Part shown: piece after piece, positions 23,486 to 57,401 of the stretch | Layout of the letters: each line of letters opens with the position of its first letter | How positions within the stretch are numbered: position 1 is the first letter of the stretch | Virus record (IMG/VR): IMGVR_UViG_3300028591_000020 | Location: 11,596 to 75,595 of that record | Strand: one strand, 5' to 3' | Length of the DNA stretch: 64,000 bases | Source: a virus | Taxonomy: Duplodnaviria > Caudoviricetes | Program-made: the position numbers and the translations under genes | Notes under the pieces: model-generated | What the model was told of the DNA's origin: nothing | Database searches by the model: none | The model's input: the letters and a program-made list of their open reading frames with translations, nothing else

Positions 23486-23527
23486 GATTTTTAAAGTTTA
23501 AAATTGATGATTTCAATCGTTACTTAG

Positions 23528-23600
23528 TTGCAGGAGTGTGACTCGAACACACGACCTCAAGGCTATGATCCTCGCGAGCTACCGACTGCTCCATCCTGCG
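23528..23600 (-). tRNA. tRNA-Met(CAT), initiator-like
   Basis: CGCAGGA/TCCTGCA acceptor with C1:A72 mismatch; GAGC/GCTC D-stem; CGAGG-ATCATAG-CCTTG anticodon arm; TTCGAGT T-loop; CCA not encoded. Confidence 0.85.
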
Positions 23601-51254: not shown

Positions 51255-51334
51255 GGAAGAGTAGCTCAGCTGGTTAGAGCGCACGGTACGGCCATGTACT
51301 GTGAAGGTCGCAGGTCCGAATCCTGTCTCTTCCC
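51255..51334 (+). ncRNA. tRNA-like RNA A with extended anticodon arm
   Basis: Perfect 7-bp acceptor, D arm and T arm; 8-bp anticodon stem with 6-nt loop GGCCAT; T-loop TCCGAAT. Confidence 0.8.
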
Positions 51335-51626: not shown

Positions 51627-51736
51627 CTCCACTTAGCTCAGTCTGGCAGAGCGTCGGCAAACCCTATTGAAGAAAGTAAAGTGCCATAAAAAATTAATAT
51701 AGCCGAAGGTCGCAGGTCCGAATCCTGCAGTGGGGA
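51627..51736 (+). ncRNA. tRNA-like RNA B with 43-nt anticodon loop
   Basis: CTCCACT/AGTGGGG acceptor; GCTC/GAGC D-stem; TCGGC/GCCGA stem around 51659-51701; T-loop TCCGAAT. Confidence 0.8.
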
Positions 51737-52841: not shown

Positions 52842-53555
52842 ATGCTATTACTGAATATGACACATGAAGAGGTGCGCAACGAGATTCTTAAGGACCTCCC
52901 CAATGTAGAGAATTGGGAACGCCACCTATGGAAAGACTTCCGTCGAAAGTCGCTCAAGATGCACGACTTTCCCAAGTATCTTTTCACGGAGTATGTCAGC
53001 CCTCGCAAGAATACTTGGCTCGTATCGACCAAATTCTTCGGCAAGGATGACTTCTCTTCTACCTTCGGTGTGCTACAGATTCAGAATGGCCTCGTTCTTC
53101 ATCAGGCTTTTGTCAATCAGGCAGAACAACGATTCTCTACCATCTGCACCTTCATTCCTCACTTCTTCGAGAGGTACGCTCAGTACAATAATCTCGACCT
53201 CAAAGGTAAGGCTCTGATAAAGCAGATGCTCAAAGATGACTGTTCCTTCAATATTGACAAGACGCAATATATCTCTGGCCGCAAAGAACGCCACAGGGAT
53301 GACAACGTACATGCCTGCATGAAGAATGTTGTTGGTCTTGGTTATGAGGTTGGCAAACGTCACTATCTGATAAAAACCTGCATAACCTACGACATGTCTA
53401 TGGGCAAGCAGAAGGAGATATTCGAGTCCAAGCGCAACGATGTACTGAGAGTAACGGCCAAGCCATCACTCTTCACACAGCCGTTGACACGGATAAACTT
53501 AGGAATCACTGAGAAAGTAGTTGAAAAGCTCAAGCGAAAGCTGGGCATGAAATAG
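52842..53555 (+). CDS. Hypothetical protein
   Basis: 237 aa. Confidence 0.7.
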   Translation: MLLLNMTHEEVRNEILKDLPNVENWERHLWKDFRRKSLKMHDFPKYLFTEYVSPRKNTWLVSTKFFGKDDFSSTFGVLQIQNGLVLHQAFVNQAEQRFSTICTFIPHFFERYAQYNNLDLKGKALIKQMLKDDCSFNIDKTQYISGRKERHRDDNVHACMKNVVGLGYEVGKRHYLIKTCITYDMSMGKQKEIFESKRNDVLRVTAKPSLFTQPLTRINLGITEKVVEKLKRKLGMK

Positions 53556-53578
53556 TGTTTAATTTTAATTTGAAGCTC

Positions 53579-54397
53579 ATGCAGGAAACAAAGCAAGAGA
53601 AGTTAGGAGAGTGGAAACGTCCAGAGGATATTGTCACTTTCCGTACTGCCGATCAAGCCGAAATGATTGGTAAATATCTTCCTCGAAGAGTCCTAAAGAC
53701 TTGGAAGGAAGATTTTACCGATGAAAATACAGGTGAGATTGTCAGTATCGAACGCAATGAAGTTCTGTTTGATGCCGGACAAAAGATTACCAAGGACCTT
53801 GCGGCCAAGATTATGTTCAGCATCCAAGCAGGAGAAATCGAAGATGTAGAAGTTTCGGAAGATTTGGTATTGCCAGCCGAACGCTACATTGGCCACTACT
53901 TTATCAATTATGCTGTGGGCATAAGTGCTAACAGCGTGAAACGATTGTTTGTGGTTCGTGCTCAAAACATCGAGACAGCCATCAAGGTTGCTGTAGATTT
54001 TGCCAACGTTTATCGTGGTGCAAATGGTCTTATTACTCCCATAAAAGTAAATCCTGTCAACTGCACCATCATTGATGACGACGATGATTGCATTCCAGAG
54101 GAAGAGAGAATTGCTCTTGAACTCCAAAAGGATTACTACATGGTAAATGTTCGTTTCCTCGAATTTGACAACAACGAACAGAAGTGGGAGAAAACCGACT
54201 ACAACTACCTAATTACGGCTGATGATGTAGGACAGGCAAAGAAACGTGTCGAGTCATATTGCAACGACGTGTTTGATGAAGTTCTCAAAAGACACCCTGA
54301 GAATAAGTTTGTTATTCGTAAGGCTGCACCTTTTGAGACTGATGGCCTCGTACCAAAAGAGTATTGTTTGCTGTACAAACAAACACCTACAATATAA
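53579..54397 (+). CDS. Protein with N-terminal RpoB-insertion-like segment and DUF4494-like C-terminal domains
   Basis: [41 protein letters not shown]. Confidence 0.7.
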   Translation: [272 protein letters not shown]

Positions 54398-54603
54398 TGA
54401 TAGGTACAGGAATAGACAATAGTGGCAGCAATTCTGCTGCCACTTCTTCACGAAAATACTACTATCGTAGGCATGGACGTGACTTTGAGATTTGCGAGAC
54501 CGCTACAGGTCAGGCCGTCTTTCCGTTTATACGTTTCCGTTCACAGGAAGAGGCCAAGAATAAAGTCTACGAAATGAATGGTTGGAAACCAAAAACAAGT
54601 TAA
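54397..54603 (+). CDS. Small hypothetical protein
   Basis: 68 aa; EEAKNKVYEMNGWKPK motif. Confidence 0.55.
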   Translation: MIGTGIDNSGSNSAATSSRKYYYRRHGRDFEICETATGQAVFPFIRFRSQEEAKNKVYEMNGWKPKTS

Positions 54604-54607
54604 CGCA

Positions 54608-55525
54608 ATGAATAACATTTTAGAAACTATCAAGACTGTTTCACATGAGCAGATTCCCGACCTCGCACATGACAAATTCGTGCAGGTCTATTCACAAAAG
54701 TTCGGTGCTGAGAAGGCCGAAGCATTCTTTGAAGAGCAGAAGAATCTCTTCATCAATGAGCTGACATACGGATCCTACAAGGATTTGTTGAAGAATGCCG
54801 ATGCTATGTCAATCTACTTCGCTTTCCTCTTCCTGGCAATCAACGGACTTTCCATCGAGAAGGGCAACACGACGACGTGTTATCTGGAGTGTAAGCGTGT
54901 GAAGATTGGTGAGAATCAGGGTAAGGATGGTAAGAACTATCCCGTCTATCAGTCGAACGCTGTCATCACCGTCACCGGCTATGGTGAGATTATCCTGCGA
55001 CAGCGTGCCAAGCAGATTCGTTCCGTCGATTCTCCAAAGGTTGTGTACGACTGCGACACGTTCCGTTATGGCGAGTCTGATGGCCGTCCTACGTTGACAT
55101 GGGAGAAATGCCTGCCACGTCCGCAAGGCTCGCGAGTCATTGCCTGCTACGTTCGCATCATCAAGAACGATGGTTCTGTTGACTATTTCGTTCTTGACAC
55201 CGACGAAATCCTGCGTCTCAAGCAGTATTCAGGCAAGGCTAATGCCTATTGGGATAACAATGCCCGTGTGATGGTGCCACGTCCTAACGCACTCTACGGC
55301 AAGGCTGATGACGGTTCTGATATTGACACAGGATTCCTCAAGTCAAAGACTGTCAAGCACGCTTTCAAGGGCTATCCAAAACTCAGCATCGGTGCTGGTG
55401 GTGCTTTCGAGTCTGACAAGGATTTGGACCCTGTAGATAACGCTAATGTTCCTGCCACACCGGAAGAAGCTCCTGCCAACGGAGTACAGGTAAACACAGA
55501 TGAAAGTGATCCATTTAACCAATAA
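54608..55525 (+). CDS. RecT-like single-strand annealing protein
   Basis: First gene of the recombination module; VITVTGYGEI, VIACYVRI, KTVKHAFK. Confidence 0.75.
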   Translation: MNNILETIKTVSHEQIPDLAHDKFVQVYSQKFGAEKAEAFFEEQKNLFINELTYGSYKDLLKNADAMSIYFAFLFLAINGLSIEKGNTTTCYLECKRVKIGENQGKDGKNYPVYQSNAVITVTGYGEIILRQRAKQIRSVDSPKVVYDCDTFRYGESDGRPTLTWEKCLPRPQGSRVIACYVRIIKNDGSVDYFVLDTDEILRLKQYSGKANAYWDNNARVMVPRPNALYGKADDGSDIDTGFLKSKTVKHAFKGYPKLSIGAGGAFESDKDLDPVDNANVPATPEEAPANGVQVNTDESDPFNQ

Positions 55526-55528
55526 GTC

Positions 55529-56734
55529 ATGGCAGAAAATCAGTTACAAGTAATTATCAAGCAGTCAGCGGAAGTCACAAAGAATGTGGCTTCCATCAAG
55601 ACTGACATCACGAACGCTATTCAGGAGAATAACGTATCGCTGCAGAACTGCATCAATGCAGGCGAAGCTCTGCTTGCTCAGTCTGGTGAAATGACAGACG
55701 AGCTGGATGCTCAGATTGCATCCTTCATCAAGAAAGCGTCAGTCACTCAGAAAGCAATGACAGAGCGACGCAAGGGTGTTACTCAGGTGTTCGACCTCGT
55801 AAAATCTGGTTTCACAAAGATGGAAGCCCTTCTTGATAAGAAGTCAGAGGACAGCATCATCTATAAGTTACAGAAGAAACGTGACGAATACGCTGCCTAT
55901 AAGCTGGACCTGCAACGTAAAGCTGAGGCCGAGCGTCAACGTCTCGCACGTATCGAAGCTGCCAAGACACAGCTTCATGATGACGTTATCTCTATCTGCA
56001 ACAAGATTGTCAACGAGAAAACATCTGAGGCTCTTGATAAGTTGTCCGAGAAGTTCCGGCTCATGACACTCGACAATGCCGAGCAAGTCAAGAAGGAAAT
56101 ATCTGAATATCCTACAGAGATAAAGATTGCGACGTTCCTTTCAGACCGTAAACCGTCAGTATCTCCAGAGGTTGACCCCGAAGAGGCACGTCAGATAATG
56201 AATGCAGCCTATCGCGAAGTCAACGAGCAACTATCCAAATCCTTCACGGATTCCGTTGCTCAGACCAAGCAGGATATTCTCGATACTTTTGACTCTAAGA
56301 TTGCAGAGCTGCAGGAAATCAAGAAGACTGCCGACGAAGCCGAGAGAAAGCGCAAGGAGGCAGAACTGAAAGCAGCCGAGGAAGCAGCCGAGAAAGAACG
56401 TCAGGCAAAAGCCGAGGAAGAAAAGAAAAAACGTGAAGAGGAAGAGCGACTGCGTAAGGCTCAGTCTCAGACTCAACAGCTTTTCGACCAGACTCCAACC
56501 GTTGCCGCTCCTGTCAAGGCGAAGGTGTCACACCGCATTGAGATAGATGCTCCAGAGGGCTATCTTGCAATCATTCAGATGTGGTGGGCGCATGAAGGCT
56601 CGAAGATGTCTCTCGAAGACTTGGCCAAGAAGTTGGGATTCATGACGAAGACCTGCGAAAAGCTCAAGAACAAGGAAGACCTTGCTATTATCGACGAGCA
56701 TGTCATCTACGTCGAAGAAATTGCAGCGAAGTAA
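55529..56734 (+). CDS. Coiled-coil recombination-module protein
   Basis: 401 aa helical protein between the annealase and the exonuclease. Confidence 0.7.
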   Translation: MAENQLQVIIKQSAEVTKNVASIKTDITNAIQENNVSLQNCINAGEALLAQSGEMTDELDAQIASFIKKASVTQKAMTERRKGVTQVFDLVKSGFTKMEALLDKKSEDSIIYKLQKKRDEYAAYKLDLQRKAEAERQRLARIEAAKTQLHDDVISICNKIVNEKTSEALDKLSEKFRLMTLDNAEQVKKEISEYPTEIKIATFLSDRKPSVSPEVDPEEARQIMNAAYREVNEQLSKSFTDSVAQTKQDILDTFDSKIAELQEIKKTADEAERKRKEAELKAAEEAAEKERQAKAEEEKKKREEEERLRKAQSQTQQLFDQTPTVAAPVKAKVSHRIEIDAPEGYLAIIQMWWAHEGSKMSLEDLAKKLGFMTKTCEKLKNKEDLAIIDEHVIYVEEIAAK

Positions 56735-56735
56735 T

Positions 56736-57401
56736 ATGGATCCGTACTACTCAAGAAGTGAGGTCAGTAACTCTGACCTTACTTCGCTCAAACTCAAGCT
56801 CTATCCGCAACTTGATTTCGTCAAGCCAAAGGATAAGAAGAAAGCGTTCCACCTTGGTACGCTCGTTGATGGGCTTGTCACTGAGCCAAAGAATTGCAAT
56901 CACTTCCGCTATCTTGTTGGTGACGAGAAGTACACCAAAGAAGAATGGGAGTGGGGAAAGAAACAGCTCGAAAAGCTACGTCATGCAGCAAAGAAAGACC
57001 CATTCCTTGCATACGTCCTCGCTAATGCAGACGGTCAGAAATGGTTTGCTACTGAGTCACAGCATTTCGATGTTGGCTGTTATTCCTTCGACCTCGCTAC
57101 GCGCTGCAAATTCGACTGGTGGCTGGGTAACTTTGGTGGCGACCTCAAAACTACCGTTGCTACGTCTCAGGACCAGTTTGAAAAGTGCATCGACTACTTT
57201 GAGTGGGACAGAAGCCGTGCATGGTACATGGACCTAACCCATTCTATCAATCCTCTTTGGGGTAATCAAGATTTCATCTATGCCATATCAAAGACTGCCA
57301 ACAAGGTATTCTACAAAAAGATTATCCGTGGTGACGAACTCTATGAACGTGGCAAGGAAAAGTATCTTGAACTGGCCTTTAAGTATTGGTTATTCGTTTA
57401 G
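56736..57401 (+). CDS. PD-(D/E)XK exonuclease (ExoVIII/DUF3799-like)
   Basis: YYSRSEVSNSDL, CKFD, GGDLKT. Confidence 0.75.
   Translation: MDPYYSRSEVSNSDLTSLKLKLYPQLDFVKPKDKKKAFHLGTLVDGLVTEPKNCNHFRYLVGDEKYTKEEWEWGKKQLEKLRHAAKKDPFLAYVLANADGQKWFATESQHFDVGCYSFDLATRCKFDWWLGNFGGDLKTTVATSQDQFEKCIDYFEWDRSRAWYMDLTHSINPLWGNQDFIYAISKTANKVFYKKIIRGDELYERGKEKYLELAFKYWLFV

Follow-up and report, generated by a model that had tools for sequence, protein, structure and literature searches.

A phage protein with a free-standing homologue of the Bacteroidota RNA polymerase beta-i4 insertion, a probable case of host surface mimicry

We describe an open reading frame (ORF) at 53555-54397 of a 64,000-nucleotide stretch of DNA (the window, meaning the whole of the DNA that was analysed) from the Caudoviricetes record IMGVR_UViG_3300028591_000020. 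The N-terminal part of its predicted 280-residue product, domain 1, is a true homologue of the beta-i4 insertion of Bacteroidota RpoB, the beta subunit of RNA polymerase; it comprises the entire domain and is accompanied by no other polymerase element. The remainder of the protein is of the DUF4494 type. The protein is probably a case of phage molecular mimicry of a host surface, with a concrete testable partner: we assign a probability of roughly 45% to the reading in which domain 1 mimics the beta-i4 surface and a host helicase of the UvrD/PcrA type is the best candidate for its partner.

Results

Domain 1 is a homologue of the RpoB beta-i4 insertion

When the whole protein was compared with the sequences of the Protein Data Bank (PDB) using phmmer, RpoB alone gave significant matches, namely residues 229-279 of the Flagellimonas taeanensis subunit (9n9p_C; E 2.7e-9) and the Porphyromonas gingivalis subunit (8dkc_C; E 3.9e-5). 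Fragments of RpoB were also recovered, at E 2.3e-5, in a search of 5.8 billion proteins. In line with these results, BLASTP aligned the phage protein with a partial Bacteroidia RpoB (P0053) with 25 identities in 36 residues (69%; E 5e-15), the hairpin concerned being residues 240-275 of P0053. An earlier note on this DNA, made from the letters alone, had described the translation of 53663-53860 (+ strand) as a near-copy of the Bacteroidota RpoB insertion; the translation reads as quoted there, the BLASTP alignment bears out the likeness, and the RpoB sequence given in the note proved essentially right, being present in P0053. A search for longer proteins with a 66-residue piece returned members of the phage family described below and nothing else, which reflects a limit of the word index.

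An AlphaFold2 model of the whole protein, built with 25 relatives as input, reached a predicted local distance difference test (pLDDT) score of 89.9 and a predicted template modelling (pTM) score of 0.70, and in this model domain 1 follows the order strand-strand-helix-strand. Using Foldseek against the PDB, the sole match of the model at E<=0.001 was RpoB (9n9q_F; 81 columns, root-mean-square deviation 2.5 Å, E 3.7e-4). As this match spans 81 columns, the unit shared with RpoB is the whole domain of ~80 residues rather than a short acidic motif. The earlier note had named two outcomes that would speak against it, no RpoB alignment at all or one confined to a short acidic motif; what was found instead were the significant phmmer and BLASTP alignments and this fold match of domain length. 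VIA-align also matched domain 1 to the beta-i4 regions of the cyanobacterial, plastid and Escherichia coli RpoB proteins (Z 4.8-5.7).

To place the segment within RpoB, six Bacteroidota RpoBs were aligned with E. coli RpoB using MAFFT, and the Bacteroidota segment fell within E. coli residues 225-343, on the second of two repeats, as anticipated by the earlier note, which had equated the insertion with E. coli beta-i4. The best local alignment of domain 1 itself on E. coli RpoB covers residues 295-333, inside beta-i4. This stretch of the E. coli subunit is beta-i4, also termed SI1, which is built of one to six BBM2 modules, two of them in E. coli (Opalka et al. 2010; PMC2939025). Because the Bacteroidota segment aligns on one of the two E. 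coli BBM2 repeats, the beta-i4 of Bacteroidota is, as judged by alignment, a single BBM2 module. The similarity of domain 1 ends at the limits of the insertion and leaves out the flanking lobe; in agreement with the earlier note, Pfam recognises no further polymerase family in the 280-residue protein.

Domain 1 thus belongs to the same sequence family and has the same fold as the beta-i4/BBM2 modules of RpoB (Iyer et al. 2004; Lane and Darst 2010; PMC2939025), but differs from them in being the N-terminal part of a phage protein, not an insertion in the beta2 lobe of a polymerase. BBM2 modules have been defined as parts of beta and beta' only (PMC2939025), and we found no literature on a free BBM2 domain or on a phage copy of beta-i4.

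The acidic hairpin is the best-conserved part of a large phage family

Searching 1.84 billion representatives with HMMER recovered 497 clusters (at 50% identity) with E<=0.001, 275 of which had E<=1e-10, and nearly all of the best 150 clusters are 250-300 residues long with the same architecture. The family is a large set of ~270-residue proteins from phages and metagenomes; relatives were located on phage-like contigs 44-108 kb long, in gene rows of an early or accessory type. The ORF product also has a full-length profile match to phrog_35807 (E 3.7e-39; residues 25-276 against positions 12-277 of 283), a group of ~270-residue phage proteins without a function entry in PHROGs. One relative (P0144; 354 residues) carries an additional C-terminal winged-helix domain of the FtsK-gamma type (PF09397; E 2.3e-24; residues 273-331).

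Conservation was then assessed across 172 phage family representatives and 80 Bacteroidota RpoBs from several classes. The latter are the best 80 loci from a scan of genomes with two conserved peptide patterns; all are from Bacteroidota, and all 80 fall within open frames as long as RpoB, in which the motif comes at about residue 250. Over 29 residues, the hairpin is almost invariant in these RpoBs, and the phage consensus is identical to the RpoB consensus at 26 of the 29 positions, with a median identity of individual phage hairpins to the RpoB consensus of 69% and a maximum of 86%. Unlike the hairpin, the helix and last strand of domain 1 drift within the family, and domains 2 and 3 of the representatives have a median identity to this protein of 20-22%. 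This pattern is as expected of a binding-surface mimic, agrees with the mimic or decoy proposed in the earlier note, and appears consistent with selection for the same surface.

In a tree of 252 segments, the phage and RpoB sequences lie on opposite sides of one branch (SH-like support 98). At the DNA level, domain 1 is 72-77% identical to the 80 rpoB loci over at most 107 nucleotides, the best matches coming from Flavobacteriia and Chitinophaga and not from gut Bacteroidales. The single split in the tree, together with the low and short DNA identity, led us to reject recent or repeated capture from hosts, so that the word 'captured', used for this domain in the earlier note, does not hold in the sense of a recent transfer. 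Since phage and RpoB segments part on one branch, these comparisons point to domain 1 having been acquired or shared once, long ago, with selection keeping its hairpin near the polymerase sequence. Matches of 93-134 residues that consist of domain 1 by itself have junk-like tails and look truncated or frameshifted, and were not used. A search for prophage copies with the C-terminal 173 residues gave no match in 121 genomes of the family to which Phocaeicola belongs, a weak negative given its one diverged query.

The hairpin tip matches a helicase docking motif

The tip of the phage hairpin, TDENTGEIV, and the corresponding VDEDTGEVV of Bacteroidota RpoB align with IDESTGELI of E. coli. In the AlphaFold2 model, a loop at residues 56-61 that includes TGE connects strands 46-55 and 62-72, with a local pLDDT of 87-92, and a solvent-exposed beta-hairpin is predicted to carry the TGE triad at its tip. 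Urrutia-Irazabal et al. (2021; PMC8318588) described a nine-residue helicase interaction motif, VDPETGEIL in Bacillus subtilis and IDESTGELI in E. coli SI1, which hydrogen-deuterium exchange mass spectrometry, pull-downs and a glutamate mutant identify as the docking motif of the PcrA/UvrD Tudor domain. The T-G-E triad lies at the tip of an exposed hairpin, mutation of its glutamate strongly lowers binding, and the motif is found in UvrB too (PMC8318588). The affinity of the E. coli UvrD C-terminal domain (CTD) for core polymerase is ~77 nM (PMC7585439), and a complex of the E. coli lobe-SI1 with UvrD-CTD has been solved by crystallography (7EGS).

A UvrD/PcrA-type helicase of ~780 residues ending in a PF21196 Tudor domain is encoded by 27 of the 31 Bacteroidota genomes searched, and is usually their sole PF21196 protein. 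The earlier note had proposed a factor that docks on the insertion; to this we add the C-terminal Tudor domain of UvrD/PcrA as a candidate. A second Tudor match, in Xylanibacter, was rejected as a separate Tudor protein: the locus (L083 in Xylanibacter brevis, G002:C11:105725-108853) holds a truncated second copy of the 3' end of uvrD, with a 224-residue frame that includes the Tudor domain, and the full-length gene lies on another contig (L086).

We then predicted a complex of domain 1 (residues 22-108, entered as an alignment) with the Tudor domain from Phocaeicola (an alignment of 25 sequences). The prediction gave weak support, with an interaction prediction score from aligned errors (ipSAE) of 0.33 (0.31-0.35 in three runs), compared with 0.00 for the highest-scoring of three controls; contacts agreed between runs to at least 96%, and the pLDDT of the partner was at least 79. 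Of the pairs used for calibration, 58 of the 80 solved complexes and 2 of the 110 mismatched pairs attained the mark for this score; at an ipSAE of 0.60 or under, only 7 of the 80 solved complexes did so, along with both passing mismatches. The model is a small addition to the case, not proof of binding.

The C-terminal part is a DUF4494 domain of two repeats

In the model, all three units of the protein share the order strand, strand, helix, strand. Domains 2 and 3 align with each other in hhalign (probability 95%, E 2e-8), and Pfam places PF14902 (DUF4494) on residues 192-238 with E 9.6e-5 and 22.7 bits, below the 27-bit cut-off; a relative of 98% identity has a precomputed PF14902 match. 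Furthermore, domains 2 and 3 together match three DUF4494 proteins in BFVD over ~160 columns (E 4.9e-6 to 1.1e-4; template modelling score by target 0.70-0.72), including those of Tenacibaculum phage pT24 and a crAss-like virus. The earlier note had seen a fusion with two DUF4494-like domains: the fusion stands, while hhalign and BFVD indicate rather one DUF4494 domain made of two homologous repeats. Domain 1 as a third such repeat was rejected, having no sequence support (hhalign probability <1% against domains 2 and 3), and the structural matches of the DUF4494 part with eL20/LX and PurS (Z 6-7.8; ~56-66 residues) do not rise above the noise of VIA-align.

The two-repeat fold is common to the phage C-terminal part and to DUF4494 proteins in general, but ordinary members of PF14902 are ~140-180 residues long and lack an RpoB-like domain. 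Cellular DUF4494 proteins (~165 residues) were found in four of five Bacteroidota genomes and, among 14 control genomes, in B. thetaiotaomicron alone; phages of Bacteroidota also encode DUF4494 by itself. In two cellular Bacteroidota examples (L118:1474-1962 and L119:1489-2016; 162-175 residues), the protein consists of two repeats, each of which opens with an aromatic residue and a charged hairpin and closes with an acidic tail. The gene neighbours differ between these two genomes and are not transcription-related, offering no operon clue. As to the function of DUF4494, we found no publication, no solved relative and no NCBIfam model.

The gene lies in an early, recombination-type region

The ORF, whose features are collected in Table 1, belongs to a tightly packed row of genes on the + strand, and its GTG overlaps the stop of the upstream gene. 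Because relatives (264-278 residues) begin near residue 9, and the public (Atlas) record of the protein begins at residue 9, the true start is probably the ATG at 53579. The RecT-type gene lies two genes downstream. In keeping with the early/middle operon setting given in the earlier note, the gene row with its RecT and exonuclease VIII-like genes is early and of the recombination type, and the phage is Bacteroidales-type. The virus record that holds the window is 75.6 kb long with terminal repeats, and the sole near DNA match of the window among deposited phages is the methylase gene of a Bacteroides phage. In the window, ARAGORN predicts an 80-nucleotide tRNA-Arg at 51255-51334 (+; anticodon ACG) as well as a tRNA-Met at 23527-23600 (-), and it calls no tRNA at 51627-51736. 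In two relatives (P0049 and P0035, on contigs L113 and L115), the adjoining genes encode Tad2-like, N6/N4 methyltransferase, VRR-NUC, HU-like and 'Sequestin' proteins, and these surroundings are of the type of early region that often holds counter-defence genes.

Table 1. Positions in the window of the ORF, its parts and two neighbouring genes.
Feature	Positions	Strand	Basis
Whole ORF, 280 residues from GTG	53555..54397	+	ORF list and translation
Domain 1 (residues ~27-105), free-standing copy of RpoB beta-i4/SI1, one BBM2 module	53633..53869	+	phmmer, Foldseek, VIA-align
Acidic beta-hairpin (residues 42-72), best-conserved part of the family	53678..53770	+	Consensus comparison with RpoB
Hairpin tip TDENTGEIV, matching the PcrA/UvrD Tudor 'helicase interaction motif'	53717..53743	+	Translation; alignment; model
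Domain 2 (residues 110-170), first DUF4494-type repeat	53882..54064	+	hhalign; BFVD
Domain 3 (residues 190-265), second DUF4494-type repeat	54122..54349	+	Pfam PF14902; hhalign; BFVD
RecT-like single-strand annealing protein	54578..55525	+	Pfam RecT, 28 bits (cut-off 24); phrog_148
Exonuclease VIII-like gene, recombination partner of RecT	56682..57401	+	phrog_412, E 3.3e-17

Discussion

It seems reasonable to suggest the following mechanism for this phage protein. In Bacteroidota polymerase, the single-BBM2 beta-i4 sits on the beta2 lobe, and domain 1, the first of three small domains of an early protein, displays the same acidic hairpin away from the polymerase. By mimicking this surface, the phage protein may bind a factor that docks on beta-i4, for which a host UvrD/PcrA-type helicase, acting through its C-terminal Tudor domain, is the best candidate. 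Two outcomes can be envisaged. As a decoy, the protein would titrate the factor away from transcribing polymerase; as an adaptor, it may use its DUF4494 part to bring the factor to phage DNA, or else to the RecT/exonuclease machinery encoded nearby. The RecT and exonuclease neighbours and the relative with an FtsK-gamma domain (P0144) are hints that the family works on DNA; neither decides between decoy and adaptor.

The phage motif resembles those of the established partners of the Tudor domain (RpoB SI1, UvrB and others) in its sequence, its position and its modelled place at a hairpin tip. However, its binding is a weakly supported prediction, the triad varies in nearly half of the phage family representatives, and no phage protein appears in the list of partners given in PMC8318588.

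Several points weigh against UvrD/PcrA as the partner. An exact TGE is found in only 92 of the 172 family representatives, with the glutamate, which is critical in B. subtilis, in ~79%, compared with TGE in 79 of 80 RpoBs, and elsewhere in the hairpin R67, D56, E52 and F54 vary less than the tip does, so that the surface under selection may be wider than the Tudor site, or other than it. The UvrB hairpin that bears the motif in B. subtilis lacks TGE in both Tenacibaculum (L122) and Phocaeicola (L123), which have IETNEV and PVSGHR, respectively, although this absence from UvrB in two Bacteroidota is neutral for the RpoB-type site. We found no literature on the Tudor-hairpin interaction in Bacteroidota. 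The predicted complex passed only weakly, and may reflect likeness to, or memory of, the solved structure 7EGS. Finally, as we found no published work on DUF4494, what the protein brings about can only be guessed. Because the triad is variable, other residues are more constant, UvrB is without TGE and the interaction is unstudied in Bacteroidota, the general reading of domain 1 as a mimic of beta-i4 outweighs the specific assignment of UvrD as its partner.

The hairpin may accordingly be aimed at some other ligand of beta-i4, such as a Bacteroidota transcription factor, a secondary-channel factor of the DksA/TraR type, or a defence protein that reads the polymerase. We consider this unlikely as a replacement for UvrD, while taking it seriously, as the conservation spans all 29 hairpin residues, with a tip that is less constant than the charged residues flanking it, and the literature holds that the insertions of Bacteroidota polymerase are thought to bind transcription factors. 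The lobe-SI1 module is reportedly described in work on TraR as a moving part of the polymerase. TraR binding is associated with conformational changes of E. coli RNA polymerase (PMC6970531). Nevertheless, no factor of this kind is known, and among all bacteria the PcrA/UvrD Tudor domain is the sole ligand mapped experimentally to this hairpin (PMC8318588).

A reading without mimicry is also conceivable, in which domain 1 is a stable module of shared ancestry put to some other use, such as nucleic-acid binding or oligomerisation, and the hairpin is kept for the sake of folding. Four of the most constant residues (W50, F54, V63 and I65) are aromatic or aliphatic and could belong to a core, and D-x-x-T-G-E hairpins also occur in unrelated proteins; one relative has a weak, sub-threshold NusA_N match over the region, which we did not take as evidence. 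Against this, folding does not account for the way in which the charged residues of exposed type (E52, D53, D56, E57, D58, E66, R67 and E69) keep their RpoB identity while the helix and last strand of domain 1 drift. In RpoB these residues do not vary between the classes of the phylum, a point in favour of a ligand, and we regard the reading without mimicry as quite improbable.

Least likely of all, in our estimate, is a 'Rosetta stone' arrangement in which the cellular DUF4494 protein docks on beta-i4 and the phage fusion, carrying its own ligand internally, is a variant of the host DUF4494 factor or competes with it in a dominant manner: the beta-i4 module and DUF4494 are both Bacteroidota-specific, with DUF4494 present in four of the five Bacteroidota genomes examined and also carried alone by phages of the phylum, and the three-domain model is confident as a whole, but we found no sign that DUF4494 binds RNA polymerase, and its cellular neighbours in two genomes give no link to transcription.

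Mimicry of the beta-i4 surface can be compared with the action of other phage early proteins that work on this peripheral part of the polymerase, such as T4 Alc (named in PMC2939025) and T7 Gp2. The 'paf' mutations that allow escape from Alc are said to concern beta-i4. Both Alc and Gp2 bind the polymerase, whereas domain 1 copies a piece of it. A structural match of the phage protein to T7 Gp2 (Z 4.6) is at noise level and was not used.

Most lineage-specific insertions of bacterial RNA polymerase lack an explanation, and the literature expressly terms those of Bacteroidota uncharacterised. That a phage family of ~500 clusters has preserved the sequence of one such insertion nearly unchanged is, as evidence from nature, a strong argument for the hairpin being a ligand site, and domain 1, with ~85 residues, offers a small soluble bait for finding the ligand. 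If this ligand is UvrD/PcrA, a third phylum would join Firmicutes and Proteobacteria in having the contact between helicase and polymerase, and the system by which cells clear transcription-replication conflicts and R-loops would be one that phages disturb or put to their own use. The fusion also provides a first functional lead for DUF4494. More tentatively, and with considerable doubt on our part, the beta-i4 hairpin may be a docking hub, from which the soluble decoy of this phage family would pull a UvrD-type helicase, and perhaps Tudor-bearing defence proteins, off the polymerase or onto phage DNA, with the fusion marking the host DUF4494 protein as polymerase-associated. Were this so, no earlier phage protein would be known that, like the one described here, functions as a copy of a surface piece of the host RNA polymerase.

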